Shown here piece by piece: positions 1,130 to 38,361 of a stretch of 64,000 nucleotides of DNA (position 1 is the first letter of the stretch; the number at the start of each line of letters is the position of its first letter). The translations under genes and the position numbers were made by a program. Source of the stretch: a virus; the UHGV virus genome UHGV-1351772, one strand, 5' to 3'. The notes under the pieces are model-generated. The model saw nothing but the letters and a program-made list of their open reading frames with translations. It had not been told where the DNA came from and searched no databases.

Positions 1130-3088
1130 CTAGCCAATAACGGCGTATTGATCCCTCAGATACCGCTGAATCTCGGACACCACTCGAGATAGCTCGAAAA
1201 AAACGCGGTCCGGTGAGATCGTCACGATACCACGGTAAGTTCCTTCTTTTTCGCCCTCATGGGTTTTACCGCAAGACGGACATTTCTGACCCATATATCC
1301 GAACACCGCCAAACGACTACGTTCGTTATAGTTCGCCGCAGCCGCCTCAAACTCGTACACATAGTGACGATCGGAAGACAGCTCCTCCAGAATCTGGATA
1401 ATCTTATCGGTATCCGTTTCTGTGGTGCTTACCTCACGAATTTCATCGTCCTGCATAACTTCTTCAGTTACCGTAATGGATTCCACCATATACGCATAAC
1501 GTGTTAAGCGACGTGCTTCGGTAATGAGGCGAAGGTGATCTTCACGCTCCCGCTCGGTGCCTTTCTCAGCCAACGCAGATGTAGACGCGGTGTTGTTCTC
1601 TTCCACCCAACGTTCTGTATTATCAAAGAACTTACCTAACGTCGAACGACCGAATTTAACGGTAATACCGTCGCTTACGAATGTCGCAGACGGATCTTTC
1701 AGGTGTTCTTCAACAAACTTACGTTGTTCCAAACGACTGATCGTAACGTCTTCTTTACCACGCTGTTGGGCCCACAGGCTACGCTGCATATCGGTGTAAA
1801 GCGACGTACCCATGCGGATACAACGGGCCAGGTTCAGACGAATATCTTCTTGATAACCACATCCCTCATGACCACAGATTAACGTCCATGGCAAACCGCC
1901 GGGATATTTCGCTTGCATCACACCAATCAGCAACAGCCAATAATCCGCAAGATCGATAGTATCCAGCAACACGGTCTTCATGTCGTTCCCTTCGCAATCC
2001 AACGTGCAGTCGGTAACGAAGCGTAACGCAAATTCAACCATATGGCTTAAATAGATACCCGAAGATGCGGATAACATCAGACCGTAGGTCTGCATACCGA
2101 TTTTTGCAGTTTCCAGGGTCAGCTGAATATCAAAATCACAGATTTCGCGTTCTAACGGTGCACGGAAGCCTACAAAGATACCCGTTGCGGGTAACCATAC
2201 CCAGTTAGGGATACCTGACTTACGACGACGACGAAGTGCCGCAATAGCACCAGTGTGCTGACTGTTACGTGGTGTAATGAAGCCAACCGGCTTAGACATT
2301 CCCGGCAACTGTACACGCTGTTCCCAGGCGGTATCTTCACGAGACAATGCACCATCGAATGCTTGCTGTTGGTTTTGTAAACGCGGTGGCATCATGTTCA
2401 GGGCGCGATACAAACGCTCGTACAGGTCACGCTGTTCTTCCGATTTAAACAGGAGCCGACCGTCACTACCGCGCGGAACACTGGAAAAGAATTTCTTCAG
2501 TTCACTACCGATGAGATTCGGGTCTTCACGCAAACCAATCAGTGTATTGAACTCCGTCAGAACTCGACCTGGATCGTCTTCGGGCAATTCACTGATTTCC
2601 TCGTGTGGTGCTTGCGTACCAAAATTCACATGGTGCTCAGCTGGTTGTTCTTTCACTGCCGGGGATGCTTCAGGTTCGTGATCAGCGGCAATCTGTGAAC
2701 CTTCGATCGCTTGAGGAACGTAAGGTTCTTCGGCTTTCTTCTCTACCACCGGCGCAGGTTTGTCTGCGACAGGGGCAGGATCAGGTTGCTGAATAACCGG
2801 CTCAACGACAACGGGTTCTGGCTCAGCAATCGTTACTACCGGAGCAGGCTCTTCTTCATAAACCGGTTTAGGTAGAACGGGTTCTTCAGCAGGTTTCACT
2901 TTTACGAGATTGTGATACATCTCTTCTGCTTGGGCAAATGAAAAATGGGGATTACTGCGTTTGATTGCCATAATCCCATCGTCGGCGGACATCGTAGACA
3001 AGTCAGCCTCAGGTACGACGACATGAGGTGTGTCTTCCTGAACCCGACGACGCCCATTACCTGGGCGTTGGTCTAAAGTATCTGACAT
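1130..3088 (-). CDS. hypothetical protein (652 aa) with Pro/Glu/Val/Ala-rich N-terminal linker and C-terminal Cys cluster
   Basis: Long ORF; low-complexity PEPVVVEPV-type region in residues ~60-150; CGHEGC and CPSCGK cysteine pairs near the C-terminus. Confidence 0.55.
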   Translation of the reverse strand: MSDTLDQRPGNGRRRVQEDTPHVVVPEADLSTMSADDGIMAIKRSNPHFSFAQAEEMYHNLVKVKPAEEPVLPKPVYEEEPAPVVTIAEPEPVVVEPVIQQPDPAPVADKPAPVVEKKAEEPYVPQAIEGSQIAADHEPEASPAVKEQPAEHHVNFGTQAPHEEISELPEDDPGRVLTEFNTLIGLREDPNLIGSELKKFFSSVPRGSDGRLLFKSEEQRDLYERLYRALNMMPPRLQNQQQAFDGALSREDTAWEQRVQLPGMSKPVGFITPRNSQHTGAIAALRRRRKSGIPNWVWLPATGIFVGFRAPLEREICDFDIQLTLETAKIGMQTYGLMLSASSGIYLSHMVEFALRFVTDCTLDCEGNDMKTVLLDTIDLADYWLLLIGVMQAKYPGGLPWTLICGHEGCGYQEDIRLNLARCIRMGTSLYTDMQRSLWAQQRGKEDVTISRLEQRKFVEEHLKDPSATFVSDGITVKFGRSTLGKFFDNTERWVEENNTASTSALAEKGTEREREDHLRLITEARRLTRYAYMVESITVTEEVMQDDEIREVSTTETDTDKIIQILEELSSDRHYVYEFEAAAANYNERSRLAVFGYMGQKCPSCGKTHEGEKEGTYRGIVTISPDRVFFELSRVVSEIQRYLRDQYAVIG

Positions 3089-3664: not shown

Positions 3665-3725
3665 TTTTATATTCCTTTAGCAAAAAAAGAAAGGGTGTAC
3701 ACAATATACACCCGTTCTGTTCTTT

Positions 3726-4109
3726 TTAACCGTTATCATGAGGAACGGTTACCCAACTGTGCCATTTCTCGGAGTATAACCGATAGGCCACTTTCGGGTT
3801 TTGGTCTACATTACCTGCGGGGTTTTCAGACCACAGAACCCAACTGTACAATTCATAAGACGAAGTATTACGAATACTGGAGTTACGTGTGATATAATAG
3901 CATTTACCACGTTGGAAAATCTGCATTCCTGCATAGTGTTCATTCACCATGTAATAGTGAAATGCGACACTCATTACAGGATCGGTACAGAGTCTATTTA
4001 CGACGTCTAAAACGTCGGGATACGCCTTTAAAACTTTTTCGAGAAAACTTGCTAAGTTCAGACCGGCATACGGCGCGGTTGGCTCTGTTGGCTGCGGCGG
4101 TAGTAACAT
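3726..4109 (-). CDS. hypothetical protein (start uncertain)
   Basis: 127-aa ORF overlapping the 3' end of the helicase gene by 115 bp; the true start may be an internal Met. Confidence 0.35.
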   Translation of the reverse strand: MLLPPQPTEPTAPYAGLNLASFLEKVLKAYPDVLDVVNRLCTDPVMSVAFHYYMVNEHYAGMQIFQRGKCYYITRNSSIRNTSSYELYSWVLWSENPAGNVDQNPKVAYRLYSEKWHSWVTVPHDNG

Positions 4110-20086: not shown

Positions 20087-20445
20087 CCTCCCATGCTTTC
20101 ACATGGGCACAGACTATATCATAACCGTAGGTATTGCTACCCGTAGGTCTCCCCCACTTCGCCGCTAAACTAAGCAGCTACTCTACTCGGTTTTACCCTT
20201 TCGATAGTCGTTGAACGATTTTCATCGCTGCTGGTTATCCATTATCACAACCCTTAGCATTATTGGTTAGCATAGGTTATCTTACGAATTGTTTCTGACT
20301 TTCGCCACCCTGTCGGGATCGTAAGCTTTAGGGGTTTCCAGCAATTCGAGGGATACGCACTAGAGGTTTCCCGTCTAGTGGGCCAGTGTTTAGCATTAGG
20401 TGCTTTGATGACGCGATCAGAAATACGCAGAGAACATTGTGTTAC
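20084..20445 (-). other. group I self-splicing intron (ORF-less), boundaries approximate (+/- 20 nt)
   Basis: Minus-strand core elements in canonical order: P aattgctggaaa (20335..20346), Q aaccagcagc (20227..20236), R gttcaacgacta (20205..20216), S atgatatagtct (20111..20122), P9 hairpin cccatg-tgaaag-catggg (20090..20107), with a G before the exon-2 frame. Confidence 0.65.
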
Positions 20446-34187: not shown

Positions 34188-34835
34188 TTATCGGAGAGTA
34201 TCAATGGTTTTACCTTCATTGTTCATGATGTAAACCACATCCCCTGGATAGAAAAATTCGTAAGCATCATCGACGTGTAAAACACCGATCGCCTCGTCAA
34301 CCGAATGCTTACCACTACGGAGCTGATTCTGATAGAAGGTATCGCCATCTTCGTTGATCAACTCACGGATTAATTGGATTTCTTGAGGTGGCATCACATA
34401 CGTCATTTCACGCTGTGTAAAGCCACAAAACCGGCAATAGAAATTATTGCCAGGAATATAAATTTCGTCGACTGGCGAATTCTTTTCTTCGACGGACGGC
34501 ATACGCGGGTTAACGATCACCACACGTGGCACATCCTCTGGAATAGGTCGACCACCGATGACAACGGTCCAATTTGACACATTGTGCAAAAACGGATGCA
34601 GGTTGGCTAAGGTGCTTTTCTGTTCCTCTACGGACATATCAGTTAAAGCTGTATAACCCACCGGTTTCGGTTTTCTCGGCAAATCAATCGCGTTATCAAA
34701 ACACAATTCATTATCTTCGCCATTGGCGACTTTAAGTGCTTCTTTGTAAACACGGGACATTTTGTCACCCAAACGTACACGTTCGTGAACAGTGATGACA
34801 CGGTCGCCGTTAATAACACGTTTTACTGTAAGCAT
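34188..34835 (-). CDS. hypothetical protein (215 aa)
   Basis: Minus-strand ORF downstream of the 545-bp gene-free region. Confidence 0.5.
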   Translation of the reverse strand: MLTVKRVINGDRVITVHERVRLGDKMSRVYKEALKVANGEDNELCFDNAIDLPRKPKPVGYTALTDMSVEEQKSTLANLHPFLHNVSNWTVVIGGRPIPEDVPRVVIVNPRMPSVEEKNSPVDEIYIPGNNFYCRFCGFTQREMTYVMPPQEIQLIRELINEDGDTFYQNQLRSGKHSVDEAIGVLHVDDAYEFFYPGDVVYIMNNEGKTIDTLR

Positions 34836-35379
34836 TTCTGTTACCTCGTACTGTTACTACTACTCGTTCTGTTGTACGTCGCTATACCCCGACGTGTGGG
34901 TTAATGGGACGCGTTGACGTCTGATGAGGCGCAGCAGGCAGTGGCAGCAATGACAGCAAGGGCAGCAATGGTACAAACGCCAACGCGAATAAAAAACGCT
35001 ACTGATCAAATAAAACGACAAGGAAAGTATGAGAAACAAAGACCAGTACCGTCGAGTTAACGCGTAACTCTCAATTCACATTACAGGGTATTCACGTTGC
35101 ACTTAGGGGAAATACCCAGTAATTAAATTCTTGGTGGGAGTAGGTGGGAGGATACCCTCCCACCGTACCACCGTTTCGGCAGTCGTGCTACCAGGACCCT
35201 ACGGCCCTAAACGTAAGTCCGAACTTAATCGGTAGGTGTTTACACGTTTTTAAGGAGCTTTCTACCCGTGAGCAAGAGCAGAAAATATCAGAGCAGGCGT
35301 AACTCAGTTGAAGGCTGACGGGAAAATCTACCCAACATACGTCTGTTCTAATTAGGTTAGTGGGCCGAAGCCCACTGTT

Positions 35380-35640
35380 TTAGCCGTATAGGTAATCAGT
35401 GTAAAGAACCTCCCCCTCAGGATAGTGCGTTGTACCGAGGAGTGTGGCTTCGAGGGTAACCTCTTCCACATCACCATCCGATAACAACTCGCCAGTCCAA
35501 CCTATTTCGGATGGAAGAATTGCACATGCAGCTTCTTCCGTAGGGGCTGCCACAATCATTGCGGAATATTCATCCCAACCAACGTGGTCGGTTCTTTCTA
35601 CTAGATACAAGTTCATAATTTTCTCCCACAGATAACACAT
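35380..35640 (-). CDS. hypothetical acidic protein (86 aa)
   Basis: Small ORF directly downstream of the tRNA. Confidence 0.4.
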   Translation of the reverse strand: MCYLWEKIMNLYLVERTDHVGWDEYSAMIVAAPTEEAACAILPSEIGWTGELLSDGDVEEVTLEATLLGTTHYPEGEVLYTDYLYG

Positions 35641-35680: not shown

Positions 35681-35756
35681 TGGCGGGGGTGGGAAGTTTC
35701 GAACTCCCAACCTTCGGTTTTGGAGACCGCTGCACCACCAATTGTGCTACACCCCC
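35681..35756 (-). tRNA. tRNA-Trp (anticodon CCA), 76 nt with encoded CCA
   Basis: Hand-folded cloverleaf from the reverse complement: acceptor GGGGGTG/CACCCCC, D-stem GCAC/GTGC, anticodon loop CUCCAAA (U33, CCA, A37), T-arm GGGAG-TTCGAAA-CTTCC; anticodon and T arms nearly identical to E. coli tRNA-Trp. Confidence 0.8.
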
Positions 35757-35763
35757 TAATACA

Positions 35764-36264
35764 TCAAAACAGCTTAAGTGTTTGCGTTTGACCACCGCTG
35801 TACAGGTCGTAACGTTTCGCCACTTCCACCGCAGTGGGGGCGTCAACGCCAGCACCTAATGCACCCAGGGCATAGTGAGCACCTGAGCCTATCGCATACG
35901 GCGGCTCTACAAACACGTAACTGGCGTATTTGTTGTCTTTGCACTTCGAGGCGTCGATAACGCGTCCGTCTGTCAAAACAGCAAGTACGATAAAATCAAT
36001 CTGCTCGGGATACGTCGTTTCGAATCTAACTCCACCCCGTTCGATACCGCCGAAACGTTCAAGCGTGAGTTCTTGGCGCACGGATTGCAATGCGGCGACA
36101 TCACCTGCCAAACCGATCGCTTTCACGTCTTCACCCAAAAGCTTCCACGACGTACCCTCAGGCGGCGTGTGAATCTTACGGTATTGCGTGGCAGCACTAC
36201 GTTCTTCCACGGTGACTTGACCGTCGCAAGCTAACGTCTTTCCGTCGAAAACAATCGTGGTCAT
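35764..36264 (-). CDS. hslV: HslV-like Ntn-hydrolase peptidase (proteasome beta-type)
   Basis: MTTIVFDGKTLACDGQVT vs E. coli HslV [22 protein letters not shown] (catalytic Thr after Met); KAIGLAGDVA vs KVIAGFAGGTA; YAIGSGAHYALGALGAG vs IAIGSGGPYAQAAARAL; length 166 aa vs 176 aa. Confidence 0.7.
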   Translation of the reverse strand: MTTIVFDGKTLACDGQVTVEERSAATQYRKIHTPPEGTSWKLLGEDVKAIGLAGDVAALQSVRQELTLERFGGIERGGVRFETTYPEQIDFIVLAVLTDGRVIDASKCKDNKYASYVFVEPPYAIGSGAHYALGALGAGVDAPTAVEVAKRYDLYSGGQTQTLKLF

Positions 36265-36626: not shown

Positions 36627-37518
36627 ATTAAAATCTCCTGTCGTGGTCTGTGTCACACCAACAGGAAATCCTGTAAAAAAATAATTCAGCTGCGTACCGG
36701 CGTTTCTCAACGGGAGTACGCACCCCTCTCGTCTTTGCGAGCCGTCAAGCTAGAGGACATCACACTGCCAGCGCTACCTGGAGCAGGGTCATTCGACGCA
36801 ACGTCGTAATTCGCATTTTGGCCGCACCTCTGGGAGCGTATCCCACCGTCGGCTGCCCGCAGGTAAGTTCTACGGACCTTTCGCCAACGTCGCTCCCAGA
36901 GGCTGCCACGGTTCACTCGGATTTTCTCATGTGGTCCACGCGTCACTGATAGCGCGGGTTCCCCAACACTCGTAAGTCGGGGAACGGTACCGAGCACCTG
37001 AACTCTGGGGATTCCAAAAATCCCTCGGGGTAAGTACGATTCGCAAATCGATTTTCAAACCCCATAGTAAAACAAACTCCAGTGTTAGGCTGAACGTTTT
37101 GTTTTTCCCAGTACACGGCGAAATAAATTCCATGCACTCGAAAAAACAACCCCCAAACCAACACCCGGTCAGGGGGCTTCGAGCTCTGCTGAATCTTCGC
37201 AGACAGAAATCGTGTTTGAGCTGTGAGCAGTAAACTCCTGAACTCCGAAAAATCTTCGTGGTTGGATTTGTAAATCATCCCACGCAAATCCTCCGAACAT
37301 ACCATAGGGTTTTAACGTTCGAAAAAGGGGAATGGGTTTTACCCCCCTCGGTCAGGTGTTCAGGGTAGACCCCCTACCCGATCCCCCAGGTGGGGATTTT
37401 ACCCTGGTGAATTACCCCGGGTTCGATTTTCGGATTTTCTGGAAAATACCGCTCACCGATCCCTACCCCCTCAGGGGGGTCAGACCGAGATCAGATCTCA
37501 TAATAAGGATCGCGCGCG

Positions 37519-37680
37519 TTTTATATATATTTATATATAATATATATTATATATAATAATTATTATATTAATAAATATATTAATATATTTATTTAAATAA
37601 ATAATTAAATAATACCTAAAGGTATTATTATTTTGATCCTAAAGGAATAATATATTTATAAATAAATATATTATACTATA
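37519..37680. other. ~160-bp almost pure A+T core: candidate DNA-unwinding element of a replication origin
   Basis: Only a handful of G/C across 37519..37680, with internal inverted repeat aataatacc-taaa-ggtattatt, inside a 1.65-kb gene-free island. Confidence 0.5.
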
Positions 37681-37700
37681 CGCGCGTGCGTACGCACGCG
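37681..37700. repeat. alternating purine-pyrimidine CG palindrome (cruciform/Z-DNA-prone)
   Basis: cgcgcgtgcgtacgcacgcg: perfect 18-bp palindrome cgcgtgcgtacgcacgcg inside a fully alternating 20-mer, abutting the AT core; a shorter gatcgcgcgcg sits on the other flank (37508..37518). Confidence 0.6.
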
Positions 37701-38361
37701 TATAAGGAAGAGATCTTGAGATCAGATTTTTGAGAGAGTTAAAAATTTAAGATCGATCCGAGAGACTTAGTGTCTCTCGAAGAGTATTAAAAAATTTAAA
37801 AGATCAAAAAACCAAAGCTAGAGAACTACTCAACCTGAATCTTCAGTGTGTGAAGATTCAGTAAGTTGATCAATCCAGCTGATCCGCTAGTACGCGAAGC
37901 GTGAATGTTTTTTTGATCGTCGCGGCGGCCGGTCCGCCGACCCGAGGGTGGGGTGGAACTGGTCGAGGGGAATGCCCCTCAGGCGCTCTCAATCGCGCTG
38001 TAACGAGTTAAACGGGGTTCTGGTACCCAAGTGTACCCCTTGAGGAGATTTTTGCGTCAAAATGCGTTCTAGAGCGTTTTACGATGGGGTGGGTTTTCGA
38101 CCCACTCAGGGATAGGGGTTGGCGTGACAGCTCGAACGACAAAATCGTGGTTTCATGGCGTTGAGTGAAAATAAATTCAAAACCCACAACCAAAAACACC
38201 CTCAAATTCTTCGTAGGAAGCTCTCTGACGAGATAAACGTGGGTAAGGGGTACGAACGTACCGCCTGGAAAGAAAAATGCGTTAGAATCGCTCTCAGCGC
38301 GTTTTTGATTTTTGGGCAAAAAAATAAAACGGGGGAGACTTCGGTCTCCCCAGAATATTTT

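Follow-up and report, generated by a model that had tools for sequence, protein, structure and literature searches.

Positions 34836-35379 of the window, by which we mean the whole 64,000-nt stretch of the viral genome UHGV-1351772 that was analysed, probably represent the non-coding tail of a unit made up of an HslV-like gene, tRNA-Trp and an 86-aa ORF, and would encode a stable structured non-coding RNA co-transcribed with tRNA-Trp. We put the probability of this reading at roughly 60%, with moderate support from the computations. A preliminary description of the gap had offered three options, namely a structured RNA, a decayed intron or mobile element, and a replication or packaging signal, and the structured RNA alone gained support, again to a moderate degree. 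The same description had suggested an Rfam scan, which gave no match in the gap, and a comparison with relatives, in which both conservation and covariation were present. The putative RNA matched no described family, and would be a candidate in a known kind, the phage non-coding RNAs tied to tRNA genes.

The gene-free gap and its neighbours

The gap (544 bp) contained no ORF of at least 60 aa in six frames. The preliminary description was right on this point at the same cut-off, but it counted 545 bp and ranked the interval as the second-longest, whereas our own six-frame scan found it to be the longest such ORF-free interval within the window. Its placement of the gap in a co-directional minus-strand context, downstream of the tRNA and the HslV-like gene, was borne out by the ORF list, ARAGORN and Rfam. 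The coordinates of all features are given in Table 1.

Table 1. Features of the gap, of the genes around it and of the larger element that SPN3US carries in this slot (window coordinates unless stated otherwise)
Feature	Position	Strand	Basis or remark
HslV-like ORF	35764-36264	minus	ORF list
tRNA-Trp (CCA)	35681-35756	minus	ARAGORN; Rfam tRNA model, 60.6 bits; sole tRNA of the window, upstream of the gap in the block
86-aa ORF, upstream anchor gene, SPN3US gp264 homologue	35380-35640	minus	BLASTP, 51% identity, E 1e-24
TAA stop of the 86-aa ORF	35380-35382	minus	
C(UUCG)G tetraloop hairpin, GUGGGC-UUCG-GCCCAC	35360-35375	minus	Sequence and fold; starts 4 nt past the TAA stop
Multi-hairpin RNA domain, ~273-300 nt	35031-35330	minus	Covariance-model match
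Possible closing helix, CCGUC/GACGG	35321-35317 with 35053-35049	minus	
Hairpin	35283-35260	minus	
Near-invariant single-stranded stretch, AGCUCCUUAAAAACGUGUAAACACCUA	35259-35233	minus	Contains CUCCUUA at 35257-35251
Hairpin, loop AUUAAGUU	35232-35219	minus	
Hairpin	35208-35193	minus	
Hairpin	35192-35178	minus	
Hairpin	35172-35133	minus	
Hairpin	35129-35073	minus	
Hairpin	35070-35054	minus	
Lineage-specific 36-nt patch	35005-35040	minus	Alignments
Orphan U6 run, terminator tail in relatives	34991-34996	minus	Alignment; stem missing in the window
14-bp hairpin, arms 34987-34974 and 34923-34910	34910-34987	minus	Inverted-repeat search, fold
Small hairpin CGUCG-GGGUAUAG-CGACG, leader of the 215-aa ORF	34877-34894	minus	Read from the sequence; stem invariant in all copies
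Shine-Dalgarno GAGG (34847-34844) and ATG (34835-34833) of the 215-aa ORF	34833-34847	minus	
215-aa ORF, SPN3US gp262 homologue	34188-34835	minus	gp262-family match
SPN3US-type element in L017 (SPN3US, NC_027402.1)	Locus ~1304-1833, record ~2200-2730		Also in L001, L018-L040 and L052-L054

The largest ORF inside the gap, of 59 aa with a TTG start (34860-35039, minus), fell just below the cut-off, and a Leu/Pro-rich ORF of 33 aa (34882-34983) and plus-strand ORFs of 34-52 aa were also present. It is very improbable that the gap serves to encode one or more of these as small proteins. The ORFs do exist, and the period of 9 nt in the repeats described below is a multiple of 3; however, all of them begin with TTG or GTG, and no Shine-Dalgarno motif was seen before them. 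The N-terminus of the 59-aa ORF, which is Cys-rich, lies inside a window-specific patch, and indels of 1 nt, 2 nt and 17/18 nt disrupted all small gap ORFs across the relatives, with those of 1 nt and 17 nt shifting frames. Pfam gave no match for the flanking ORFs or for the small gap ORFs.

Judged from its sequence, the source of the window is a jumbo phage of ~225 kb that is distantly related to the SPN3US-like phages. Its relatives were viral and metagenomic contigs of ~220-228 kb. Megablast against phage genomes returned no match, and sensitive blastn against them returned only one match of 98 nt, where the 215-aa gene begins, with the DNA at its start codon 74.5% identical to SPAsTU. The HslV-like protein was ~35% identical to its counterparts in SPN3US-like Salmonella and Erwinia jumbo phages. 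In SPN3US, SPAsTU and pEa_SNUABM_29 the gene order was HslV, tRNA-Trp, a gp264-like ORF, an unannotated block of ~800 bp, one to several tRNAs and a gp262-like gene. Because the flanking gp264-like and gp262-like genes and their order match, the gap is the positional counterpart of the SPN3US-type tRNA island. Related phages have 1-10 tRNAs in the corresponding slot; the window gap has none, as ARAGORN called no tRNA or tmRNA in it and the tRNA model RF00005 gave no match.

The immediate neighbour of the gap differed among the relatives (designated here by locus numbers). The 86-aa ORF was missing from L003, L004 and L005, which have a tRNA-Ile instead. This tRNA-Ile, with the unusual anticodon AAT, replaces both tRNA-Trp and the 86-aa ORF at L003 1810-1886, L004 1675-1751, L005 3273-3349 and L056 4791-4867; the annotation of Erwinia phage Asesino also has a tRNA-Ile(aat). 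In the window, tRNA-Trp is ~350 nt upstream of the structured element described below, while in L003, L004 and L005 the tRNA ends ~20 nt before it.

A multi-hairpin domain conserved in its pairing

R1, a covariance model constructed from the window sequence and four relatives, matched exactly one copy per genome, at 11 loci with scores of 209-381 bits and at a 12th in a MAG, and the stretch 35031-35330 was present in 11/11 relatives found. The copies were aligned with MAFFT (A6, 11 copies) and under guidance of the model (A9). The 72 pairs predicted in A6 had 98.1% of their stem cells paired, a value reached by 0/500 shuffles, and pairing was 40-49% in a control in which the partner was slid by 1-3 columns. 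In A9, 6 pairs spread over four hairpins were altered on both sides (0/500 shuffles). Between the window and the L002-type copies we counted 13 stem substitutions in 10 pairs, all 10 of which were still canonical, and among the copies the stems were maintained via compensatory and wobble changes. The most diverged copy, L049, yielded the same hairpin series when folded alone. The minus strand folded at -98.4 kcal/mol (z -4.13) versus -89.3 kcal/mol (z -2.44) for the plus strand, and the domain stems contained 7 G.U pairs, which work on one strand only. It was this combination of presence in every relative, a minus-strand fold with z -4.1 against -2.4 for the plus strand, and stems kept by compensatory or wobble changes that favoured the structured-RNA option. 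The covariation rests on 4-6 pairs, in about three sequence types of low divergence, and several of the domain hairpins were uninformative because they are invariant.

The divergence of the element (3-17%) was comparable to that at third codon positions of the genes on either side (8-17%), which indicated that pairing is conserved and sequence is not. In the 27-nt unpaired stretch at 35259-35233, a single site carried substitutions among the 11 copies aligned, which makes AGCUCCUUAAAAACGUGUAAACACCUA the most promising candidate for a surface through which the domain RNA would bind a partner. The CUCCUUA that it contains presumably matches the 3' end of 16S rRNA, an idea only, since the match was noticed post hoc and has a chance of ~2% in 273 nt.

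The possible closing helix has a competitor in a local 5' hairpin and, in the L046-type copies, a second one in a 3' terminator-like hairpin, which in these copies lies with a U6 run directly at the 3' end of the element. Two candidate pairings were rejected, a 5' helix at A9 columns 25-31/35-41, which was 74% paired, and a long-range pairing of GAGUUACGC (5') with GCGUUAACUC (3') from the minimum-energy fold of the window, which the L002-type copies cannot form. A genome-collection scan added one L002-type copy, L056 (JAEWFE010000254.1), on a contig of 13.7 kb, and no new diversity. This contig was binned in a MAG labelled Bacillota; it is probably a mis-binned phage contig, and does not count as host evidence. 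Five extra loci from a 17-mer scan of viral contigs are likely chance matches, R1 giving weak partial matches in two of them with E above 0.1.

When the whole window was scanned with Rfam 15, no more than two matches reached the gathering threshold, namely tRNA-Trp and, away from the gap, a group I intron (RF00028, 56.9 bits, full-length, 20090-20407, minus), the latter serving as a positive control for the scan of the gap. With E up to 10, the best match in the gap was Yfr1 at 21 bits (gathering score 38), which covered a GC hairpin only, and the L002 copy had no match at all. That the gap is a degenerate self-splicing intron or another mobile element is extremely unlikely. The intron at 20090-20407 does attest that the window carries such elements, but no intron model scored in the gap with E up to 10, although the same scan found that intron. 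No interrupted gene, homing-endonuclease ORF or repeated copies were found, no split gene flanks the gap, and each of the gap motifs has just one occurrence in the window.

Flanking hairpins and a replaced terminator region

The class of UUCG tetraloops is described in a published account (PMC4371310). The hairpin behind the 86-aa ORF has the UUCG loop, the C-G closing pair and the stable stem of a C(UUCG)G tetraloop, with a 6-bp G+C-rich stem and a fold energy of -13 kcal/mol (z -3.1). It carries the exact motif directly past the stop codon, and has no trailing U-run. The 24 nt ACAGTGGGCTTCGGCCCACTAACC were identical behind the gp264-like ORF of SPN3US, while the adjacent protein was only 51% identical, and the 16-nt stem-loop was identical in SPAsTU and pEa_SNUABM_29 as well. 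Candidate roles for this hairpin are 3'-end protection, a processing stop or a terminator for the phage polymerase.

At the other end of the gap, the 14-bp hairpin folded at -27.3 kcal/mol (z -2.4), and with two G.U pairs is formable on the minus strand only. Its 50-nt C/U-rich loop holds the 9-nt repeats UUGCUGCCN, in an array at 34931-34971. TRF reported period 9 with 2.9 copies (score 38, 34945-34970), and a repeat search gave 3-4 copies at 9-nt spacing. The pattern TTGCTGCCNTTGCTG had 2 matches against 0.32 expected, and 4 of 100 shuffles reached 2, which is modestly above chance. Repeat copy number varied from ~1 to 3 among close relatives through indels of 17-18 nt, with four relatives lacking 17-18 nt, and the stem substitutions of this hairpin among relatives were compatible with pairing. 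The motifs singled out in the preliminary description all exist, although displaced by 2-30 nt from where they had been put: the tandem array lies at 34931-34971 instead of ~34900-34945, the hairpin gggagg-atac-cctccc at 35146-35161 instead of 35141-35156, with a stem that grows to 9 bp (35143-35164), and gggccgaagcccac at 35362-35375 instead of 35364-35377, with the full stem GTGGGC/GCCCAC at 35360-35375.

Direct repeats flanked by an inverted repeat in a gene-free region are what a signal at the DNA level might look like, be it an origin of replication, a site for packaging or protein-binding iterons made of the 9-bp repeats. This explanation is very improbable. On the opposite strand the G.U pairs of the stems would turn into A.C mismatches, and folding was strand-asymmetric, the 7 such pairs of the domain working on one strand only. 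The repeat number changes from ~1 to 3 even among close relatives, an AT-rich region for unwinding is lacking, and none of the motifs recurs elsewhere in the window. In the relatives, moreover, the unit ends in an intrinsic terminator, and the replication or packaging option of the preliminary description was not supported.

Between the structured domain and the repeat hairpin, a 36-nt patch common to the window and L050 only stands in for 131 nt that were present in 9/10 aligned relatives. These 131 nt consist of a spacer, a cloverleaf-like module of ~62 nt and an intrinsic-terminator stem. The module (L002 ~3725-3790, with equivalents in L003-L005, L046-L049 and L051) has an 8-bp terminal stem, ends in ACCC, shows one compensatory change from G-C to A-U in L049 and sits between the structured element and the terminator; it gave no match to tRNA models at E up to 10. 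The terminator of the relatives is a long hairpin directly before U6, which had different stem sequences in two lineages (-18.8 and -13.5 kcal/mol). In the window, the same region had no stem (-3.8 kcal/mol, z 0.15), and no intrinsic terminator, searched for as a G+C-rich stem with a U-run, was called inside the gap. Since the order in the relatives is tRNA, ORF (where present), element, cloverleaf-like module and terminator, the element lies inside a tRNA-type transcription unit and would be read on the gene strand.

We considered whether these structures could act purely in cis, as stabilisers in the 3'-UTR of the 86-aa ORF together with a control hairpin in the 5'-UTR of the 215-aa gene, without any free RNA. 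The UUCG hairpin 4 nt past the stop codon, the repeat hairpin and small hairpin at a distance of 40-150 nt before the start codon that follows, and the lack of a terminator between the element and the 215-aa gene in the window would all fit. However, L003, L004 and L005 have the element directly behind a tRNA and no 86-aa ORF, so the element is not tied to the mRNA of that ORF; nor is it the leader of the 215-aa gene, because a terminator intervenes between the two in most relatives. A seven-hairpin domain of ~280 nt also far exceeds the needs of a 3'-end protector, and we regard a purely cis-acting role as quite unlikely.

The changes in the window lineage bear on a further explanation, that the gap is a decaying relic of a tRNA island whose structures were left over from former tRNA or non-coding RNA genes and are functionless now. 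It agrees with the slot being empty of tRNAs in the window and holding 1-10 of them in related phages, with the loss of 131 nt, the terminator stem and a structured module among them, with a sequence divergence that is about neutral, and with the drift in repeat copy number. A neutral relic at 11-17% divergence would, however, be expected to have broken stems, whereas 10/10 changed pairs were canonical against the L002-type copies and double compensatory changes occurred in four hairpins (0/500 shuffles); the 27-nt unpaired stretch with its single substitution site across 11 aligned copies also speaks against it. A functionless relic is unlikely, although the locus may be decaying, given that the window lineage lost the neighbouring module and the terminator.

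According to our preferred reading of a stable non-coding RNA, the domain RNA would be transcribed together with tRNA-Trp. The UUCG hairpin would mark its upstream limit, and processing or termination its downstream one, while the hairpins on either side and tRNA-processing nucleases would trim or protect it. It would accumulate as a stable non-coding RNA, in kind like the phage stable RNAs or the large ornate RNAs beside tRNA genes. A deletion or replacement took away the cloverleaf-like module and the terminator stem in the window lineage, and with this stem lost, transcription in the window probably continues via the repeat hairpin into the 215-aa gene.

Comparable RNAs beside phage tRNA genes and a larger element in the same slot

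The small stable RNAs species 1 and 2 of phage T4 (rnaC/rnaD), of ~120-140 nt, lie in the T4 tRNA cluster; they are co-transcribed with the phage tRNAs and freed by tRNA-processing enzymes. We liken the window element to them in kind, and it may be processed in a similar way. Covariance models of GOLLD and ROOL gave no match in the window gap, L002 or SPN3US with E up to 10, or in five further loci with E up to 0.1. GOLLD and ROOL are large ornate RNAs of phages and prophages with multiple hairpins that typically adjoin tRNA islands (PMC12286853). The window element resembles them in being phage-encoded, multi-hairpin and beside a tRNA gene, but it differs in size, with ~273-300 nt versus more than 500-800 nt for these two RNAs, which assemble into homo-oligomers. 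GOLLD, ROOL and the T4 stable RNAs make structured RNAs beside phage tRNA genes a recurring puzzle, to which this locus adds a candidate outside the database families.

The unannotated ~800-bp block of Seoulvirus was 84% identical across three species. Blastn located an element of ~570 nt in the deposited genomes of 59 jumbo phages from four genera (Seoulvirus, Machinavirus, Erskinevirus and Wellingtonvirus), always just upstream of the tRNA array; in some copies a tRNA begins no more than ~10 nt from its 3' end, a further likeness to GOLLD and ROOL. Changes on both sides were seen in 24/46 predicted pairs of its 5' domain and in 19/43 of its 3' domain, a total of 43 covarying pairs. Rfam scans of the relatives of the window and of the loci with this SPN3US-type element, run with gathering as well as permissive thresholds, returned tRNAs only and no family within the element, and we found no description in the literature of an RNA in the tRNA regions of SPN3US or Chimalliviridae. 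The SPN3US-type element is much better supported than the window element and is the most valuable by-product of this analysis. As the larger element occurs in SPN3US itself, a phage with published amber mutants and a published mapping of its essential genes, a deletion or knock-down is feasible in a real system. In several deposited genomes, short 'hypothetical protein' CDSs (e.g. MACHINA_9, ASESINO_9 and CHRISDB_9) overlie what appears to be this RNA, and their annotation calls for correction.

The two elements occupy the same slot between the same anchor genes, both on the gene strand, the Seoulvirus order being HslV, tRNA-Trp, gp264-like ORF, an identical UUCG hairpin, the element, tRNAs and the gp262-like gene. 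In both, a hairpin with an AUURAGUU loop precedes a pair of neighbouring hairpins and then a long stem. R1 matched the corresponding sites of SPAsTU (E 0.011) and pEa29 (E 0.32), and a model of the SPN3US-type element (R2) matched the window at 35140-35254 on the minus strand with 8.6 bits (E 0.35 over the window, 0.0029 over the gap alone). On the other hand, the window element is half the size of the SPN3US-type element and is without the family-invariant motifs GGUGCUUGGAGACGCUAAGACC ... GAAGAAGUCCAUC and ACAAUCUGA; the invariant 3'-domain motifs (ACAAUCUGA; GGUGCUUGGAG..AGACC; GAAGAAGUCCAUC) were absent from the window sequence as a whole. Nhmmer with a profile of the SPN3US-type family gave no match in the gap, a covariance model of Seoulvirus only, covering the 3' domain and tail (R3), gave no match to the window element, and in eight more members of the SPN3US-type family the only matches to R1 were generic GC hairpins. 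Homology between the two elements is possible, at somewhat less than an even chance. More tentatively, and rather unlikely on balance, the window element could belong, in reduced form, to a class of large ornate RNAs that is so far undescribed and heads the tRNA islands of SPN3US-like phages, a third class beside GOLLD and ROOL, which might act on tRNAs or translation while a jumbo phage infects its host.

The stretch that separates the SPN3US-type element from the first tRNA had conserved motifs, TATATATG / TATATGTCGG, ~45 and 110 nt past the core of the element (e.g. L019 ~1860-1960). By comparison with the TATG motif of phiKZ late promoters, they may be promoters from which a phage polymerase would read the tRNA array.

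A further region of the window, ~1.65 kb at 36711-38361 upstream of the HslV-like operon, contained only short overlapping ORFs, was 81-99.9% conserved in relatives and may be a non-coding element. Rfam had no match there, and a ~115-nt piece of it (window ~37483-37598) was 72-74% identical to unannotated Seoulvirus DNA (L018 2473-2580; L001 9778-9899).
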